A stretch of DNA of 64,000 nt. It comes from a virus. Both the position numbers and the translations under genes were made by a program. The stretch covers positions 45,386 to 109,385 of the IMG/VR virus record IMGVR_UViG_3300029959_000004. One strand, given 5' to 3'. The notes beneath the pieces are model-generated. The model worked only from the letters and a program-made list of their open reading frames with translations. It was not told the origin of the DNA and did not search any database. Shown in pieces: positions 1 to 41,193 of the stretch. How positions within the stretch are numbered: position 1 is the stretch's first letter; the number at the start of each line of letters is the position of its first letter.

Positions 1-1583
1 TTATAATAGTTAGCTACTTTATATCCTAAGTTCCGACTTCCTGAATGTATCATAATCCAGATATTATTCTCGGTATCTTTTTGAATCTCAATAAAATGAT
101 TTCCCCCTCCTAAAGTACCGATTTGTTTTAACGCGTTGAAATATTCTTTTTTAATAACATTATAGTTTTCTAACATATCTCTAATTGTTTCTGCTTTAAT
201 TGGCATTAAATTTTCATCTTGTCTTTCTTTATGACTTCCGTCACGCCCGTTTCCAACAGGAATAACTTCTCTAATCTTTCCCATTATCTTCTTTAAAGTT
301 TCTCTATCTAATTGTTCTGATTTTAAAGAAGTCTTAACCGCACACATACCGCAATTATGAACAAATACCCCAGAAGATAAGGCAAAATTATGATATTTAT
401 CAATAGTTAAACAATAAACATCTTCTTTTTTATTTATTAGTTTAATTGAAATAATTTTATGATTTTTTCTATTTTTATTCCAATAAGCTCCAAAACCATA
501 TTTTTTACCAATTTCAGAAGATTTGACTCTTCCTTTTTCAGATTTGTTATATTGAATTAAAAATTTCTTTCCTCTTTCTCCAGCTAATTTAGCTTGTTCT
601 TTAAATTTTTCAGTTTTTGAATAATTAATCCAATTTTGTATTGCGTTCTTTTTTACAATTTCTTGGAAATCTTTTCTTTGATGTAATTTTCTCATATTTT
701 CTGATGCCATTTTAGAAAATAAAATGGGATTATTCTTTCTTGCTATTTTAAATCCAACGATACCTAATTTAGAGTTTTTACCAACATTTTTATAATGTAT
801 TTCCCAATGTTTTTTCCAATTAACTCGTTTTATGTTTGTAGGGTTATTGTTATATTTATTAAAATCTATATGGTGTCTAACTCCTTTAGTTTTTTTATAA
901 ATACCATTTAATATATTAAACTCATCTGCTAAAATATGAATATAGCGATACTTATTATTCTTAGGATTATAAATTACATTATAATCTTTCATTTTTTCTT
1001 TTTTAAATTGATGCTCAAATTCAATATCTTCCACTTCAAATGCTTTATTAATGTAAATTGGCATTAACGATTGTCCAATTTTTAATTTTTTCGCTCTAAT
1101 TTCTTTATTTTCTCTATCATAAAATATATGATCTTTAGTGCATTTAATTATTTCATTATTATCCAATTTTATTTCTAAAAGTTCGTTGGCAATTCGTGTT
1201 TTTCTGGGACTATTAATTTTTGATATAACAATATTTGATTCTTTATCCAGAGAGTAACAAAAATTTTCTTTACCTCTATTATATTCTTTAATTAATTCTA
1301 AAAATGATAAATCTCTTCCATCAGTTAATTTAACTTTTGTATCACCAGTAAAACATCCAATATCAACACCTACTGCATTAGGTATTACTACTTTCTTAGT
1401 AGCTAATACTCCACCAATAGGCATACCAAATCCTTGATGACAGTCCGGCATTACCGCTATGTGTTTGAAAGCGAATGGTAAATTGGATAAATTAACCAAT
1501 TGTTTCACAGCTCCGTCTTCTATCTCATCTAACCACATCTTTATTGGAACTTTTTGTTTATCTGTATCATATATTACTTTCAT
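1..1583 (-). CDS. rtcB: RtcB-family RNA 2',3'-cyclic phosphate/5'-OH ligase, intein-interrupted, runs off the window at the 3' end
   Basis: Absent from the ORF track; translated by hand from ATG 1583 (SD GAGGAG upstream): MKVIYDTDKQKVPIKMW...AVMPDCHQGFGMPIGGVLA...PNAVGVDIG[intein]CGMCAVKT...QIGTLGGGNHFIEIQ...IMIHSGSRNLG. These are the RtcB MPDxHxG, DIGC, GNHF and HSGSR motifs. Confidence 0.95.
   Translation of the reverse strand, partial: MKVIYDTDKQKVPIKMWLDEIEDGAVKQLVNLSNLPFAFKHIAVMPDCHQGFGMPIGGVLATKKVVIPNAVGVDIGCFTGDTKVKLTDGRDLSFLELIKEYNRGKENFCYSLDKESNIVISKINSPRKTRIANELLEIKLDNNEIIKCTKDHIFYDRENKEIRAKKLKIGQSLMPIYINKAFEVEDIEFEHQFKKEKMKDYNVIYNPKNNKYRYIHILADEFNILNGIYKKTKGVRHHIDFNKYNNNPTNIKRVNWKKHWEIHYKNVGKNSKLGIVGFKIARKNNPILFSKMASENMRKLHQRKDFQEIVKKNAIQNWINYSKTEKFKEQAKLAGERGKKFLIQYNKSEKGRVKSSEIGKKYGFGAYWNKNRKNHKIISIKLINKKEDVYCLTIDKYHNFALSSGVFVHNCGMCAVKTSLKSEQLDRETLKKIMGKIREVIPVGNGRDGSHKERQDENLMPIKAETIRDMLENYNVIKKEYFNALKQIGTLGGGNHFIEIQKDTENNIWIMIHSGSRNLGYKVANYY
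354..1355 (-). mobile_element. Intein (334 aa) with HNH-type homing endonuclease domain, inside rtcB
   Basis: Starts CFTGDTKVKLTDG, ends EDVYCLTIDKYHNFALSSGVFVHN, followed by Cys+1. 1002 nt, in frame. Internal RHHIDFNKYNNNPTNIKRVNWKKHWEIH is an HNH motif. Confidence 0.93.
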
Positions 1584-1603
1584 TTTATATTCTCCTCTTT
1601 AGA

Positions 1604-1861
1604 TTAGTTTTTAGAATCTTGATGTGAAATTCTATATTCCCAATTCCACCAATCTTCTATAGTTCCTACATAAAATGTACCTTTTCTTTCTACAAAACAC
1701 AGCCACGCTTTAACTTCTCTTTTATCTTTTGTAATATCTACAACTATAGGAAACCAAGCAAACCACTTGTGCCATTCTTCAAGTTTTTTTATTTCTTTAT
1801 CTTTAATTTCTTTTTTCAATCTTACTATATTTTCTTTTGTATAACCATTAGTCCAAATCAT
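1604..1861 (-). CDS. Hypothetical phage protein (WHKWFAWFP type)
   Basis: ORF with SD AAGGAG, which is part of hammerhead stem III. Confidence 0.75.
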   Translation of the reverse strand: MIWTNGYTKENIVRLKKEIKDKEIKKLEEWHKWFAWFPIVVDITKDKREVKAWLCFVERKGTFYVGTIEDWWNWEYRISHQDSKN

Positions 1862-1866
1862 CTATT

Positions 1867-1921
1867 CTCCTTTCGGGCTTATTTAATGCCCTCATCAGTT
1901 AATGAATTACATTAAGAGGAA
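1867..1921 (-). ncRNA. Hammerhead ribozyme, type III
   Basis: Minus-strand RNA UUCCUC^UUAAUG-UAAUU-CAUUAA-CUGAUGA-GGGC-AUUAAAUAA-GCCC-GAAA-GGAG. Intact CUGANGA/GAAA core, three stems, CUC triplet with predicted cut between 1916 and 1915. Loop I UAAU is complementary to loop II AUUA. Confidence 0.93.
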
Positions 1922-2465
1922 CAATCTAAGTAGTAGATTTTTTAGAAATAACTCTCCATTGTCAATAGACCGCCAACAAAAAACACAAAACCTAAAAATA
2001 ACCAACACAAAATAACTATTTCTCGTCTTTCTATTCCATAACAACCACGAAACACACTATCTATATCTCCCAAAGTATGATCCATCTCTTGACCGCTTAT
2101 TTGATACATAGCTTGTTGATATTCAAGAGATTTTTCTTTCATTCTAGAAGTTGTTTCTAGTCTGCTTATTAAAGTATCTAATATCTTTAATTGAGTAGAT
2201 TTAGTCATTCTTTCCGTTTTAAAGATATAGTTAGCATGTTCTTCGCTAATATTACTAACTTTTTCTCTGTATTCCTTAAAATACATCAGTTTATCTTTAG
2301 CTGTTGAAGCGTCATCCGCTAATTTTAAGAACTGTTTATATTTTACCTCGTAGTTATATGCAATATCAACTCCGAGAATTGTTCCTAAAACAAAAAACAA
2401 TATTGCAAGACCAAATAATAGAAATTTCATTCTTATCTCCTTTTTTGGTCTACTACTTAGATTGT
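1921..2465. repeat. Perfect 17-bp inverted repeat (1921-1937 / 2449-2465) bracketing gene 1942-2430
   Basis: acaatctaagtagtaga and tctactacttagattgt are exact reverse complements, both intergenic. Confidence 0.95.
1942..2430 (-). CDS. Membrane protein with N- and C-terminal TM helices flanking a soluble domain
   Basis: Hydrophobic residues 3-24 and about 138-158; SD AAGGAG. Confidence 0.8.
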   Translation of the reverse strand: MKFLLFGLAILFFVLGTILGVDIAYNYEVKYKQFLKLADDASTAKDKLMYFKEYREKVSNISEEHANYIFKTERMTKSTQLKILDTLISRLETTSRMKEKSLEYQQAMYQISGQEMDHTLGDIDSVFRGCYGIERREIVILCWLFLGFVFFVGGLLTMESYF

Positions 2466-2482
2466 CAAAGAACCAAACTTAT

Positions 2483-2809
2483 TTACAAACAGATAGCTTG
2501 ATGTGTTTTTTCATATTCTTCCACGAACTTACATATTATAGTTCCATAGTCTCCTTCTATTCTCTCATTAGTATCTTTCTTAACAATAGACCAAGTTACA
2601 ACCTGATGTTGTAAGTAGTTTTTATACTCCATTCTTTGTAGCATTATGTTATTATCCGTAAGAATATGAAAATTCTTTCTATCTCTCATTGCCATTTTCT
2701 GTGTTCCCATATAAATTTTCCAAGCGTGTTCTTTTGCTCTTGCTAAAACCACATCAATTTGTTGCTTTTCTGTCAGGTTATTTAGCTTATTTACAACGTT
2801 TTGATCCAT
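2483..2809 (-). CDS. Hypothetical protein
   Basis: ORF with SD AGGAGG, in operon orientation. Confidence 0.7.
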   Translation of the reverse strand: MDQNVVNKLNNLTEKQQIDVVLARAKEHAWKIYMGTQKMAMRDRKNFHILTDNNIMLQRMEYKNYLQHQVVTWSIVKKDTNERIEGDYGTIICKFVEEYEKTHQAICL

Positions 2810-3181: not shown

Positions 3182-3247
3182 TTAATTGGTCTCATTCAGT
3201 TTTGTATTAAACAAAAGACGGAGATAATGTAACTCTCCGTTTCGACC
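3182..3247 (-). ncRNA. Hammerhead ribozyme, type II with pseudoknot, 1-nt core insertion variant
   Basis: Minus-strand RNA GGUC-GAAA-CGGAGA-GUUACAUUA-UCUCCGUC^UUUUGU-UUAAU-ACAAAA-CUGAAUGA-GACC-A-AUUAA. Stems II, III and I all pair; GUC triplet with predicted cut between 3217 and 3216. Loop I UUAAU pairs with the 3' AUUAA. Core reads CUGAAUGA instead of CUGANGA. Confidence 0.82.
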
Positions 3248-3413: not shown

Positions 3414-3788
3414 TTAACTGACTGATTCCACCTTCTTTTCTACACCACTTAACAATTTCTCAATGGTGGTCTGTATCTTCGCTCTCAAAGCACCTCCAAA
3501 AAGAAAATGATCCAATAAAACAACAACACCTACGGTTAAAATAATATCCTGATGATCTTCGTAATACTTTTTCAGACTTTTTAACATTTTTATTTCTCCT
3601 TTCGATTTATTTACGTATTCTAAATCTTCGTCATCCCACCGATAAGAACTTCCTGTTTTTGCTGTAGCGATAACTCTACCATAAATATCAATGTAATCAA
3701 CTACAATTATGTCTCCAATAGTTGCAGCGACTTGCCCATTACTCTTTCCTATAACTCTTAAAACATCTCCTTTTTTAAATACAGACAT
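3414..3788 (-). CDS. Hypothetical protein, SH3-like N-terminus and hydrophobic C-terminal helix
   Basis: FKKGDVLRV...WDDEDLEYV pattern; SD GGAGGTG. Confidence 0.65.
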   Translation of the reverse strand: MSVFKKGDVLRVIGKSNGQVAATIGDIIVVDYIDIYGRVIATAKTGSSYRWDDEDLEYVNKSKGEIKMLKSLKKYYEDHQDIILTVGVVVLLDHFLFGGALRAKIQTTIEKLLSGVEKKVESVS

Positions 3789-5911: not shown

Positions 5912-6148
5912 TCAATCATTTTCTCCAGTAATAATAGTCCAAATAATACCTATTTTTAGCTTATTAAAGTTTTTTTTCAAAAGAAGACAAATCTCATTTA
6001 CAGAAAAATTGTTTTTAATAAAATCTGTAGTTTCTTTATCTTTTAAATAAAAATTTGCCATATCAAATACATACCAATAATGTAACCTTTTATTTTTCAA
6101 TTCTTCAAGTTTTTCTAATTTTATTTTTAATTTTTTAGTAAGTTTCAT
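5912..6148 (-). CDS. Hypothetical protein
   Basis: ORF with SD AAGGAG. Confidence 0.55.
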   Translation of the reverse strand: MKLTKKLKIKLEKLEELKNKRLHYWYVFDMANFYLKDKETTDFIKNNFSVNEICLLLKKNFNKLKIGIIWTIITGEND

Positions 6149-6737: not shown

Positions 6738-6902
6738 ATTGTTCTCCTATTATACTACAATAAAATCTAATTCCGTCATAATATCTAATACTTCTCTTTC
6801 ACTTACCTTGAACGCTTCAGCTATTTCATAAGTGGACATATTGGTTCTCATCAAAGCATTCTTAATTCCTGCAAATACTTCATTTTCCATCTCACTCCTC
6901 CT

Positions 6903-40100: not shown

Positions 40101-41193
40101 AGTGGCTGGAGTAACTAATCACGCTCTCTTATCAAATTTAGACTACGCTTCATCGGGTCATACAGGTTTTCAACCGACAGGTAGTTATTTAACTGATTTA
40201 TCTGGTTTAGATACAGATGATTTATCTCAGGGTGCTACAAATAAATATGATCAAACTGTTGTTTTAACTGAAGGATCAAATATAACAATAACTGGAACTT
40301 ATCCAAACTTCACTATAAACGCAACTAGCGGAGTAACTACTTTAGATAGTCTATCAGACGTAATGGTAAGTTCTGGTTTAACTAATGGACAAGTGTTGAC
40401 GTGGGACTCTGGAGACTCTATATGGAGAAATATGACTTCTCCCGCTGGAGTAACAAGTCATCCTTTGTTAACAGAACTTGATTATGCTTCCTCTGGACAT
40501 ACTGGATTTCAATCATCTTTAGTTAATTCTGCTGGGCTTTCCACTGCTATAGGTGGTGATGTTGCTGTTGTAGATGGAGGAACTGGTAAATCTTCTTGGA
40601 CTCAATATTTAATTCCTTATGCTGATACCACAACTTCTTTTAGTCAAATAGCTATTGGAACTAGTGGTCAAGTATTAACAAGTAATGGGGTTGGTTCAGC
40701 ACCAACTTTTCAAGACTCTACTGGAGGTGCTTCTTCTCTAGATGAATTAACTGATGTATCTGTAGCTTCCGGTTTAGTTACTGGTCAAGTTCTGACTTGG
40801 GATAGCGCAGACGCTACTTGGAGAAATATTTTACCTATTTATTCTAAATCTTTTGTTATTACTTATCCAACAGCATCTGCGGACAGTCCAATATGGAGAG
40901 TGCCAGAGTCTATAACAATAACTCATATACACGTGTTATGTATAGGAGGAACTAGTATTGAAGGAAGATTGTGGCAATATGATTCTAATGGTTTAAATGG
41001 TTCTTCAATAGATACATCCAGTATTATTGGTTTAGCTGGTCAAAACGTTGATGACGATGGTACAATAGATGACAGTGGTAGTTCCGGTGGATTAATAGTT
41101 GCTGGTAATTATTTAGGATGGAAAACAACAACCGTTACTGGTTCCGTTACGAGAGTAATTGTTACGTTCGATTATACAATGAAAATACTTTAA
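37123..41193 (+). CDS. Long fibre/structural protein with seven LxxLxDV-xSG-...W repeats
   Basis: Seven copies of roughly LDxLSDVxVxSGLxxGQVLTWDSGDxxWRN, plus HGNLSGLADDDHTQY and LDYASSGHTGF fibre motifs. Confidence 0.8.
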   Translation: MSVSRVNDNLPVTTKISTLSEQILEIFGLVQQAKFSENDVSQLTTDFGLDRKYLRNQSLGHTLSTYTGWTHLHSESGYSLWKYSPTNYKYNSVNELYLDDVVLENRGEANSESDTTFTYVYLDAGSLFINNTTEAGTEDGTSFSLMNDTSDYLYMGLSSTFAGISFEFDTRGSNYTLECEYYNGSVWTSLDISGATYTDDTSNFESDGRIYWTIPSNWAITTINSASAYWVRISTSTTPVTTATSYIITPANSVISLLKMSSEEILNEDWAWCSYGSSIYVTIRNAGQSAYEGNYYITSSSTSVNKQNYFIHNHEFLADYEDSTYVQTDLITNLDDLSDVVVNSGLIDWQFLVWDAGDAVWTNKTLNLDDLNNVAVDSGLTNGEVLTWDSGDQVWRNATISETMTHSGLSDMPDIGGTNSDHDARYYTEAEITSLLAGKQNLDSGLTSLAGLTYTATAFVKYTGADTFTLDTNAYSLTSHTHSITNLTDVQISGQTTNQVLAWNGSNWVNSNLAIEITSLDNLSDVRVDSGLAYGQGLVWDSGDSIWRNQEVLLLDQSTVQTVIGTPIFSDIKISGMSLGTSTYSTIKDFANSFGSAGRKTGGVISDAGSGYVAVTTGTGFIKATDDDNTNILFFDWPSPSNIQIPSFSTRYIGVEYNLGTPQVVVRSSFNWNLDSEFPLGRVINENINGSDKLYVYNSPWWVTDGMTNTIEVIRSFGLLRRDESLGGLTLSVTGTRNISVTAGTVWSALNEFNFSGIDTSVSGTVEAYWYKSGTGWQSSDVSQYSVTQWNDVSQTTLQTIDANKYCNVWVYVELDANTPKVAIIYPQAQYNTPASAEATSAPSNLPTHISNVGILLGRIIIKQSVDAPVATQTAFTTTFSASVVTDHGNLSGLADDDHTQYLLVDGTRALSGNISVGGYAISNVKLGSLTSNGFVKTSGEDGTLSVDTNTYSISAHTHTLDNLSDVMVSSGLIDGQILTWDSGDSMWRNITPVAGVTNHALLSNLDYASSGHTGFQPTGSYLTDLSGLDTDDLSQGATNKYDQTVVLTEGSNITITGTYPNFTINATSGVTTLDSLSDVMVSSGLTNGQVLTWDSGDSIWRNMTSPAGVTSHPLLTELDYASSGHTGFQSSLVNSAGLSTAIGGDVAVVDGGTGKSSWTQYLIPYADTTTSFSQIAIGTSGQVLTSNGVGSAPTFQDSTGGASSLDELTDVSVASGLVTGQVLTWDSADATWRNILPIYSKSFVITYPTASADSPIWRVPESITITHIHVLCIGGTSIEGRLWQYDSNGLNGSSIDTSSIIGLAGQNVDDDGTIDDSGSSGGLIVAGNYLGWKTTTVTGSVTRVIVTFDYTMKIL

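Follow-up and report, generated by a model that had tools for sequence, protein, structure and literature searches.

A perfectly paired 17-bp helix is predicted to form in a polycistronic phage mRNA between the two intergenic gaps that flank a single cistron (ORF162), and the 3' strand of this helix runs flush into stem III of a predicted type III hammerhead ribozyme. In other phages, the same position beside type III hammerheads is mostly occupied by a short local hairpin, and such hairpins are uncommon beside type I hammerheads. These observations suggest that the helix acts as an 'upstream clamp' for the type III hammerhead, enlarged to hold a whole cistron, and that it would give the upstream cleavage product a capped 3' end and/or stack on stem III. 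We place the probability of this reading at roughly 45%.

The helix and the adjoining hammerhead motif

The source record is a 109,385-bp IMG/VR phage genome with direct terminal repeats and a G+C content of 31%. Bases 45386-109385 of this record, a stretch of 64,000 nt, constitute the analyzed DNA (hereafter, the window). Coding sequence accounts for 93% of the genome, leaving 7% non-coding, and all genes around the 17-bp helix are on the minus strand. From 5' to 3', the mRNA comprises ORF108, a 17-nt spacer, the 5' arm of the helix (ACAAUCUAAGUAGUAGA), CCAAAAAAGGAGAUAAGA, and the AUG of ORF162. ORF162 ends in UAA and is followed by AAAA, the 3' arm (UCUACUACUUAGAUUGU), and UCCUC (1920-1916), with the ribozyme predicted to cut after C1916. 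The RNA 3' of the cut comprises stem I, CUGAUGA, stem II, GAAA, GGAGAAUAG, and the AUG of ORF85, after which rtcB follows. A cREC gene and the intein-containing rtcB lie just downstream of the helix and hammerhead region. Coordinates are compiled in Table 1.

Table 1. Features in and around the helix and hammerhead region, in window positions
Feature	Position	Strand	Description
Type II hammerhead-like motif	3182..3247	-	8-nt core CUGAAUGA; cut 3217/3216; intergenic
ORF108	2483..2809	-	Upstream cistron; stop codon 17 nt before start of 5' arm
boxA-like 12-mer GUUCUUUGACAA	2462..2473	-	Overlaps start of 5' arm; weak lead
UUCUUU	2467..2472	-	Directly 5' of 5' arm; can pair with GGAGAA (1865-1870), the ORF85 SD, as alternative to stem III
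5' arm ACAAUCUAAGUAGUAGA	2449..2465	-	Begins 17 nt past ORF108 stop; 6 nt from ORF162 SD
ORF162	1942..2430	-	Looped-out cistron; AUG at 2430; UAA stop 1944-1942; SD AAGGAG 2437-2442
3' arm UCUACUACUUAGAUUGU	1921..1937	-	Begins 4 nt past ORF162 stop; last base flush with stem III 5' strand
Type III hammerhead (predicted)	1866..1922	-	Cut C1916/U1915; descriptor and CM
Stem III	1917-1920; 1867-1871	-	5' strand UCCU; 3' strand AGGA(G), the ORF85 SD
Stem I	1899-1915	-	UUAAUG-UAAUU-CAUUAA; 6 bp
Core CUGAUGA	1892-1898	-	
Stem II	1875-1891	-	GGGC-AUUAAAUAA-GCCC; 4 bp
GAAA	1871-1874	-	
ORF85	1604..1861	-	First cistron of 3' cleavage product; SD inside stem III
rtcB, 5' part	1..1583	-	Intein-containing; 748 aa; continues past window start

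A repeat search found that the two arms are complementary at all 17 positions, with 511 nt between them. One further wobble pair, G2466-U1920, is available only in RNA of the minus (coding) strand and extends the helix to 18 bp. The arm 17-mer occurs at these two sites only, both in the window and in the genome as a whole. Both arms are intergenic, lie between minus-strand ORFs, and enclose the SD along with the entire 162-aa, two-TM ORF. The offset between the helix and stem III is zero, with U1921 paired and U1920 opening stem III, and the 3' arm ends at 1921, which is 5 nt from the predicted cut (1916/1915). The repeat search and these coordinates confirm what an earlier note on this DNA had described, namely exactly complementary intergenic arms with one additional G-U pair in minus-strand RNA that loop out the SD and ORF, run into hammerhead stem III, and end 5 nt from the cut. 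No promoter was found adjoining the 5' arm in the window.

The conserved hammerhead core is complete (CUGAUGA, G1891/C1875, GAAA, U1917 as U16.1, and C1916 as H17), and its stems I and II are closed while stem III (4 bp plus a wobble) is open, as in the type III topology. A type III descriptor comprising the core, the three stems, U16.1, and H17 matched the real genome once and 200 shuffled genomes four times in total (0.02 per genome). A CM trained on 28 type III hammerheads from other phages, with the window sequence excluded, aligned over its full length to this site with all pairs standard (43.1 bits; rough E of 1e-9) and gave no other strong match in the window. Loops I and II (UAAUU and AUUAAAUAA), between which a hammerhead would make its tertiary contact, depart from the GC-rich consensus of phage examples. 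Rfam (RF00008 and its clan) yielded no hammerhead match in the window or its sub-regions, even at E values up to 10. Nor did the same search find any of the other canonical type III and type I phage hammerheads tested, and it recovered the type II and twister controls. Since other phage type III and type I hammerheads were missed too, the Rfam result reflects the models. The type III motif is well supported, and self-cleavage is predicted from its sequence.

This genome carries two further hammerhead-like motifs. The type II motif is intergenic and its predicted cut is located 751 nt 5' of the 5' arm; a type I motif with a canonical core is found at genome positions 40453-40541, also intergenic and on the same strand. 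Cleavage at 3217/3216 and at 1916/1915 would release a four-cistron RNA of 1301 nt. Phages and prophages are known to carry clusters of hammerheads that flank small ORFs (Perreault et al. 2011, PMC3088659; de la Pena review, PMC6155905), and hammerheads have been proposed to process transcripts into mRNAs that differ in how stable or translatable they are (PMC6765202). What the thousands of phage and bacterial hammerheads do biologically is an open question (PMC6155905, PMC6765202). The window resembles these clusters (PMC3088659, PMC6155905) in its mixed topologies on one strand, its use of intergenic gaps, its polycistronic unit, and its small genes that lack functional annotation, but it differs in adding a helix that is flush with stem III and loops out a cistron.

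Placement of the arms and the enclosed gene

Perfect inverted repeats 17 nt or longer, with both copies inside 3 kb, were present in 4/30 Markov-shuffled genomes (13%). Considered genome-wide, the 17-mer inverted repeat alone is only marginally beyond what chance would yield. The location of the arms was evaluated separately. When the 3' arm was required to lie within the 30 nt preceding the cut, the score of the helix was reached in none of 1500 dinucleotide-shuffled versions of the upstream 2 kb (empirical p < 7e-4; Gumbel fit 8e-5), for a local p of about 1e-4. The helix is also a lone outlier among the 32 genes with flanking gaps of at least 12 nt on both sides, with a score of 40 against 21 for the next best. 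Because the arms are intergenic in a genome that is 93% coding, form the only outlier of 32, and have a local p of about 1e-4, their placement exceeds chance, and we conclude that it is non-random.

The enclosed gene is predicted to encode a protein in which a helical bundle is flanked by one TM helix at the N terminus and another at the C terminus (AlphaFold pLDDT 85). ORF162 falls into a conserved family of hypothetical viral proteins with the motifs LADDAST and EYQQAMYQISGQE. It had no match in Pfam or PHROG, its AlphaFold model had no informative PDB match, and the atlas search returned only 'hypothetical' proteins. One homolog (P0002) is 83% identical and is encoded on an ENA contig of 797 nt, and three others (P0003-P0005) are 51-57% identical. 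INPHARED phages included no relatives of the window in DNA or protein mode, and IMG/VR included none when searched with ORF162, its family alignment, or ORF108. Matches to ORF85 in IMG/VR were limited to 42-50% identity and came from unrelated, GC-rich contexts.

More distant ORF162 homologs from metagenome and genome scans (L003-L006) are associated with neither a hammerhead nor the arms, and one of them (L004) has direct repeats on either side, which suggests a moron-like cassette. Together with the frequency of 17-mer inverted repeats in shuffled genomes, these homologs in other contexts are what might be expected if the helix had no selected function and were a chance match or a scar of ORF162 acquisition, for example by insertion into an older palindrome. 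We consider a helix with no selected function quite unlikely: the match is perfect, both arms fall in the 7% of the genome that is non-coding, they abut stem III and enclose exactly one cistron, the local p and the lone-outlier status are as given above, and the same layout is present in an unrelated phage (L021; see below).

Identical 17-bp sites in inverted orientation around one gene could also point to an element that acts as DNA, either the ends of an invertible or mobile cassette, as the earlier note had proposed, or paired protein-binding sites that loop the DNA. The cassette proposal found no backing in the genome, which lacks both serine and tyrosine recombinases (PF00239 and PF00589 absent), contains no additional copies of the arm, and shows no target-site duplication. 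Moreover, inversion would place the ORF on the non-transcribed strand of an all-minus block, and only at the RNA level do the G-U extension and the flush junction with stem III make sense. A DNA-level role is therefore very unlikely.

A flush hairpin in phage type III hammerheads

Phage hammerheads recovered from two IMG/VR pattern scans were classified as type III (about 30) or type I (about 100). The 60 nt before the cut of type III hammerheads (n = 30, although several share contigs, so that the effective n is below 30) had a folding energy of -20.1 kcal/mol, as compared to -12.9 kcal/mol for their own controls located 120-400 nt further upstream. In 27/30 cases the segment before the cut was more stable than its own control (Wilcoxon 5e-7), and the energy was still -19.5 kcal/mol when the stem III strand was left out. 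Type I hammerheads from the same scans (n = 97), in contrast, showed no such difference (-12.9 versus -12.5 kcal/mol; p of 0.38), and the two types differed from each other (Mann-Whitney 1e-6).

A flush hairpin was defined as a contiguous hairpin with a score of at least 15 and a 3' strand that ends 0-3 nt (mostly 0) from the 5' strand of stem III. By this definition, flush hairpins were identified in 70% of the 30 type III hammerheads, and the figure was 10% both for 98 type I hammerheads and for shifted controls. RNA 3' of both type I and type III hammerheads is less structured than controls and leads into an SD and start codon, which fits intercistronic processing.

The window departs from the common arrangement in lacking a local hairpin, with folding energies of -8.7 kcal/mol for the 60 nt before the cut and -7.5 kcal/mol for its control. 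Its helix falls outside the local-hairpin definition, which covers loops of up to about 60 nt, since its 511-nt loop holds a cistron. An unrelated phage contig (L021) is, with the window, among the few type III cases that have no local hairpin, and both have a long-range helix that encloses an ORF. The L021 helix (6100-6113 / 6821-6834; 12 Watson-Crick and 2 G-U pairs) has a 707-nt loop that contains a whole 195-aa ORF, ends 3-4 nt from the cut, and appears in the MFE as well as the centroid fold. Each arm lies in an intergenic gap, and the 5' arm is about 20 nt downstream of a promoter-like site (10/12 positions). The p value of the L021 helix is about 0.001-0.002, which becomes about 0.05 family-wise with 30 tests. 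Relatives of the L021 ORF are 36-46% identical only, and none has a hammerhead. Significant long-range helices were identified in just 2 of the roughly 30 type III hammerheads, and a third was marginal.

The lengths of these helices bear on the suggestion, made in the earlier note, of an RNase III site. Host RNase III would then cut the duplex and thereby excise the ORF162 cistron or trim its ends, and a stem of this kind would be expected to have about 20 bp or more. The window helix is a perfect duplex formed by the flanks of a functional unit, with 17-18 bp, or about 22 bp (near two turns) if stacked on stem III, and the boxA-like 12-mer directly 5' of the 5' arm recalls rrn operons. However, the positional equivalents in other phages are hairpins of 5-12 bp, which are too short, and a ribozyme cut is already supplied 5 nt away. 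Furthermore, no RNase III gene was found in the phage genome, and the boxA-like core (GYTCTTTRA) occurs 10 times in the genome. Collectively, these observations make an RNase III stem rather unlikely. The operon comparison has similar limits. As in the stems around 16S rRNA, where boxA accompanies the helix, flanks pair over a long distance and a boxA-like 12-mer precedes the 5' strand, but the window encloses a translated mRNA, its duplex is 17-18 bp, and the boxA match is indistinguishable from chance.

Predicted folding, cleavage products, and a proposed clamp

In a 661-nt context, pair probabilities for the helix ranged from 0.69 to 1.0, most being about 1.0, and the region had a z of -4.5. 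The helix probability dropped to 0.14 in the 1301-nt RNA released by both cuts, because an imperfect alternative pairing into the coding sequence of ORF75 is isoenergetic. Ribosomes would be expected to disfavour this alternative in vivo.

Nearest-neighbour folding of the 661-nt RNA, with energy models that leave out hammerhead tertiary contacts, gave stem III a probability of about 1% and preferred an alternative pairing of the ORF85 SD, in which UUCUUU pairs with GGAGAA (pair probabilities of 0.35-0.77 in MFE and ensemble predictions). Ensembles constrained to one or the other pairing differed by about 3 kcal/mol. These predictions raise the prospect of a translation-coupled switch. In this scenario, the helix would set UUCUUU (2472-2467) beside the ORF85 SD, and the extended helix would replace stem III, turning the ribozyme off and closing the SD; ribosomes initiating or terminating on ORF162 would then open the helix, allowing the hammerhead to fold, cut, and free the ribosome-binding site of ORF85 and then rtcB. 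The arms are within reach of ribosomes, given their distances to the ORF162 SD and stop (Table 1), and L021 is predicted to form an analogous pairing between its 5' flank and SD. Nonetheless, the alternative pairing is weak, comprising 6 bp in the window (2 of them G-U) and, in L021, 3+3 bp and a mismatch. It also persists in a model with the 5' arm blocked, which indicates that the helix is not required for it, and the tertiary contacts omitted from the models weigh further against relying on it. Most phage type III hammerheads have a plain local hairpin at this position that a ribosome never crosses. Thus, we regard a switch as unlikely.

The clamp reading starts from the topology of the ribozyme. 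In the minus-strand polycistronic mRNA, the arms would pair and the SD and ORF162 would sit in the loop, such that the long-range helix takes the position of the usual flush hairpin. In a type III hammerhead, the cut lies 5' of stems I and II, and for this reason its upstream product would otherwise end as a bare single strand. Among hammerhead topologies, only type III yields a 5' product with no terminal hairpin from the ribozyme itself, and a flush helix would provide that product with a paired 3' end. After cleavage at C1916, the upstream mRNA would end in the helix followed by UCCUC>p, a tail of 4-5 nt. Tails of 4-5 nt are too short for 3'-to-5' exonucleases to load, given the requirements of PNPase, RNase II, and RNase R. 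Before cleavage, the helix may stack coaxially on the 4-bp stem III and may prevent invasion of that stem by upstream coding sequence. The ORF85 SD, held in stem III, would also be freed on cleavage and release. We infer, accordingly at the level of prediction, formation of the helix in vivo, ribozyme cleavage, and protection of the 3' end and/or stabilization of stem III.

The enlarged loop may have originated through insertion of ORF162 into the loop of a clamp hairpin. Such an insertion would leave clamp function intact and is compatible with the clamp reading. Of the four functions put forward in the earlier note, an insulator that lets a cargo gene reside in the RNA without misfolding the ribozyme comes closest. 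The part that holds is the position, as the helix occurs where phage type III hammerheads typically have their flush hairpin. Generic insulation of the fold is less favoured, since type I hammerheads lack hairpins of this kind, and this absence points instead to a role specific to the type III topology, namely capping of the 3' end or stacking on stem III.

The earlier note also raised the idea of a ligation splint, in which the helix would hold RNA ends for the phage RtcB to seal into a circle of roughly 550 nt that carries ORF162. Hammerhead cleavage leaves a 2',3'-cyclic phosphate, the substrate end of RtcB, and the intein-containing rtcB and the cREC gene are just downstream. Yet the search for a ribozyme or other source of a 5'-OH near 2466-2482 found none, and a single cut abuts the helix. 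The sole upstream hammerhead cut is the type II site, at a distance from the arm (751 nt) at which the helix would not hold the resulting end. In addition, RtcB relatives in 17 phage contigs are without a same-strand upstream hammerhead, the helix context, or the neighbour genes of the window, the only hammerhead among these 17 loci being one type I on the opposite strand, and evidence of a nearby RtcB is absent for most clamp-bearing phage type III hammerheads. The ligation role is thus not supported and appears highly improbable.

A bolder extension of the clamp reading, which we put forward tentatively as possible but doubtful, is that the clamp helix represents an undescribed fourth module of phage type III hammerheads that can be expanded to hold a whole cistron. 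Cleavage would then yield a 'panhandle', pseudo-circular mRNA, with a 3' end paired to its own 5' UTR and a 2',3'-cyclic phosphate beside the rtcB/cREC RNA-repair module. A limited literature search, which is not proof of novelty, found no description of a helix flush with type III stem III or of its long-range, cistron-looping form.

Known systems share elements of this arrangement. T7 RNase III sites and intrinsic-terminator hairpins likewise place a duplex at a new 3' end and leave a tail too short for exonucleases; unlike in the T7 sites, the cut in the window would be made by a ribozyme, the end would carry a 2',3'-cyclic phosphate, and the partner strand belongs to the 5' UTR of the cistron, at a distance of 511 nt. 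Long or coding sequence is also looped out by a ribozyme-linked helix in group I and II introns with ORFs in peripheral loops and in the discontinuous hammerhead of the mammalian Clec2 3' UTR. In the window, however, the ORF is outside the ribozyme stem, and the helix is a separate domain that would stack on an open stem III.

Collectively, our findings suggest a topology-specific accessory helix that is present where cleavage would otherwise leave the upstream RNA with a naked 3' end and absent where hairpins of the ribozyme itself would cap it. Such a helix supports the view that phage hammerheads are intercistronic processing sites built for stable products. Should the clamp prove real, it belongs in ribozyme search models; at present, Rfam misses these phage type III examples. 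The gene-enclosing form suggests that the accessory helix can accommodate a translated insert, a property that would bear on the architecture of phage mRNAs and on the design of ribozyme-based insulators.

Structures flanking phage hammerheads

A GC-rich hairpin flush with the 5' strand of stem III was usual in phage type III hammerheads and not in type I hammerheads, where the type III set comprised about 30 IMG/VR loci (e.g., L104, L127, L131, L193, and L197). In this IMG/VR set, the RNA 3' of both type III and type I hammerheads was unusually unstructured and was followed by an RBS, and examples of both types escaped Rfam gathering thresholds.

In both cases of a long-range helix, that of the window and that of an unrelated phage (L021), the SD after the hammerhead can pair with the bases directly 5' of the 5' arm, and this pairing is an alternative to stem III or lies beside it. 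Separately, a plus-strand 12-mer, AATGACAATCTA, has GACAATCTA in common with the 5' arm and was observed in four copies, versus a composition-based expectation of about 0.2–0.6.

RNA-repair genes and other hammerhead motifs of the phage

The phage encodes both rtcB, in the product of which the RtcB domain (PF01139) is split by an intein (PF14890; residues about 93–410), and a cyclic-phosphate receiver gene. The type I hammerhead of the same genome is positioned after a stop codon and before the next SD; the loop in its stem III is about 68 nt long. A type II hammerhead-like motif features a pseudoknot between loop I and the 3' tail (UUAAU/AUUAA); it had no Rfam match and scored only 13 bits with a covariance model (R1) built from 28 type III hammerheads of other phages. 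Insertion after A6 in the hammerhead core is reported to lead to low activity (Perreault 2011, PMC3088659).

Positions of features in the window, the phage genome (genome, L020), and other contigs
Feature	Position	Strand	Remark
Alternative pairing, window	2467-2472 with 1865-1870
Alternative pairing, L021	6091-6097 with about 6888-6894		SD region
12-mer AATGACAATCTA	genome 37610, 60135, 82527, 108310 (last three, window 14750, 37142, 62925)	+
rtcB	window 1-1583, continuing to genome 44722; L020:6722-8968	-	748 aa
cREC_REC gene	L020:3407-3742		about 3 kb downstream of rtcB
Type II hammerhead-like motif	window 3182-3247	-	core with extra base, CUGAAUGA
Type I hammerhead	L020:2375-2503; genome 40375-40503	-	canonical core
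Type II hammerhead / twister-P5 pair	L028:1261-1329 and 1535-1593	-	Rfam calls
Direct repeats AATAATTTAATRCCGAAAGGCGAAAG	L004:2952-2979 and 3481-3506

Ribozyme loci and an ORF162 homolog in other contigs

Rfam called two ribozymes in a single phage contig (L028), a type II hammerhead and, about 200 nt from it, a twister-P5. Type III hammerheads in both polarities, with a repeat period of 480 nt, were identified in IMGVR_UViG_3300003576_000155 (1122 nt). This entry among the viral DNA contigs has the appearance of a dimer of a circular RNA, viroid-like or satellite.

The homolog of ORF162 in a 41-kb metagenome contig (L004) is bracketed by direct repeats that contain a small hairpin and an SD region. 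This bracketing suggests that the ORF162 gene family was acquired in a cassette-like manner.
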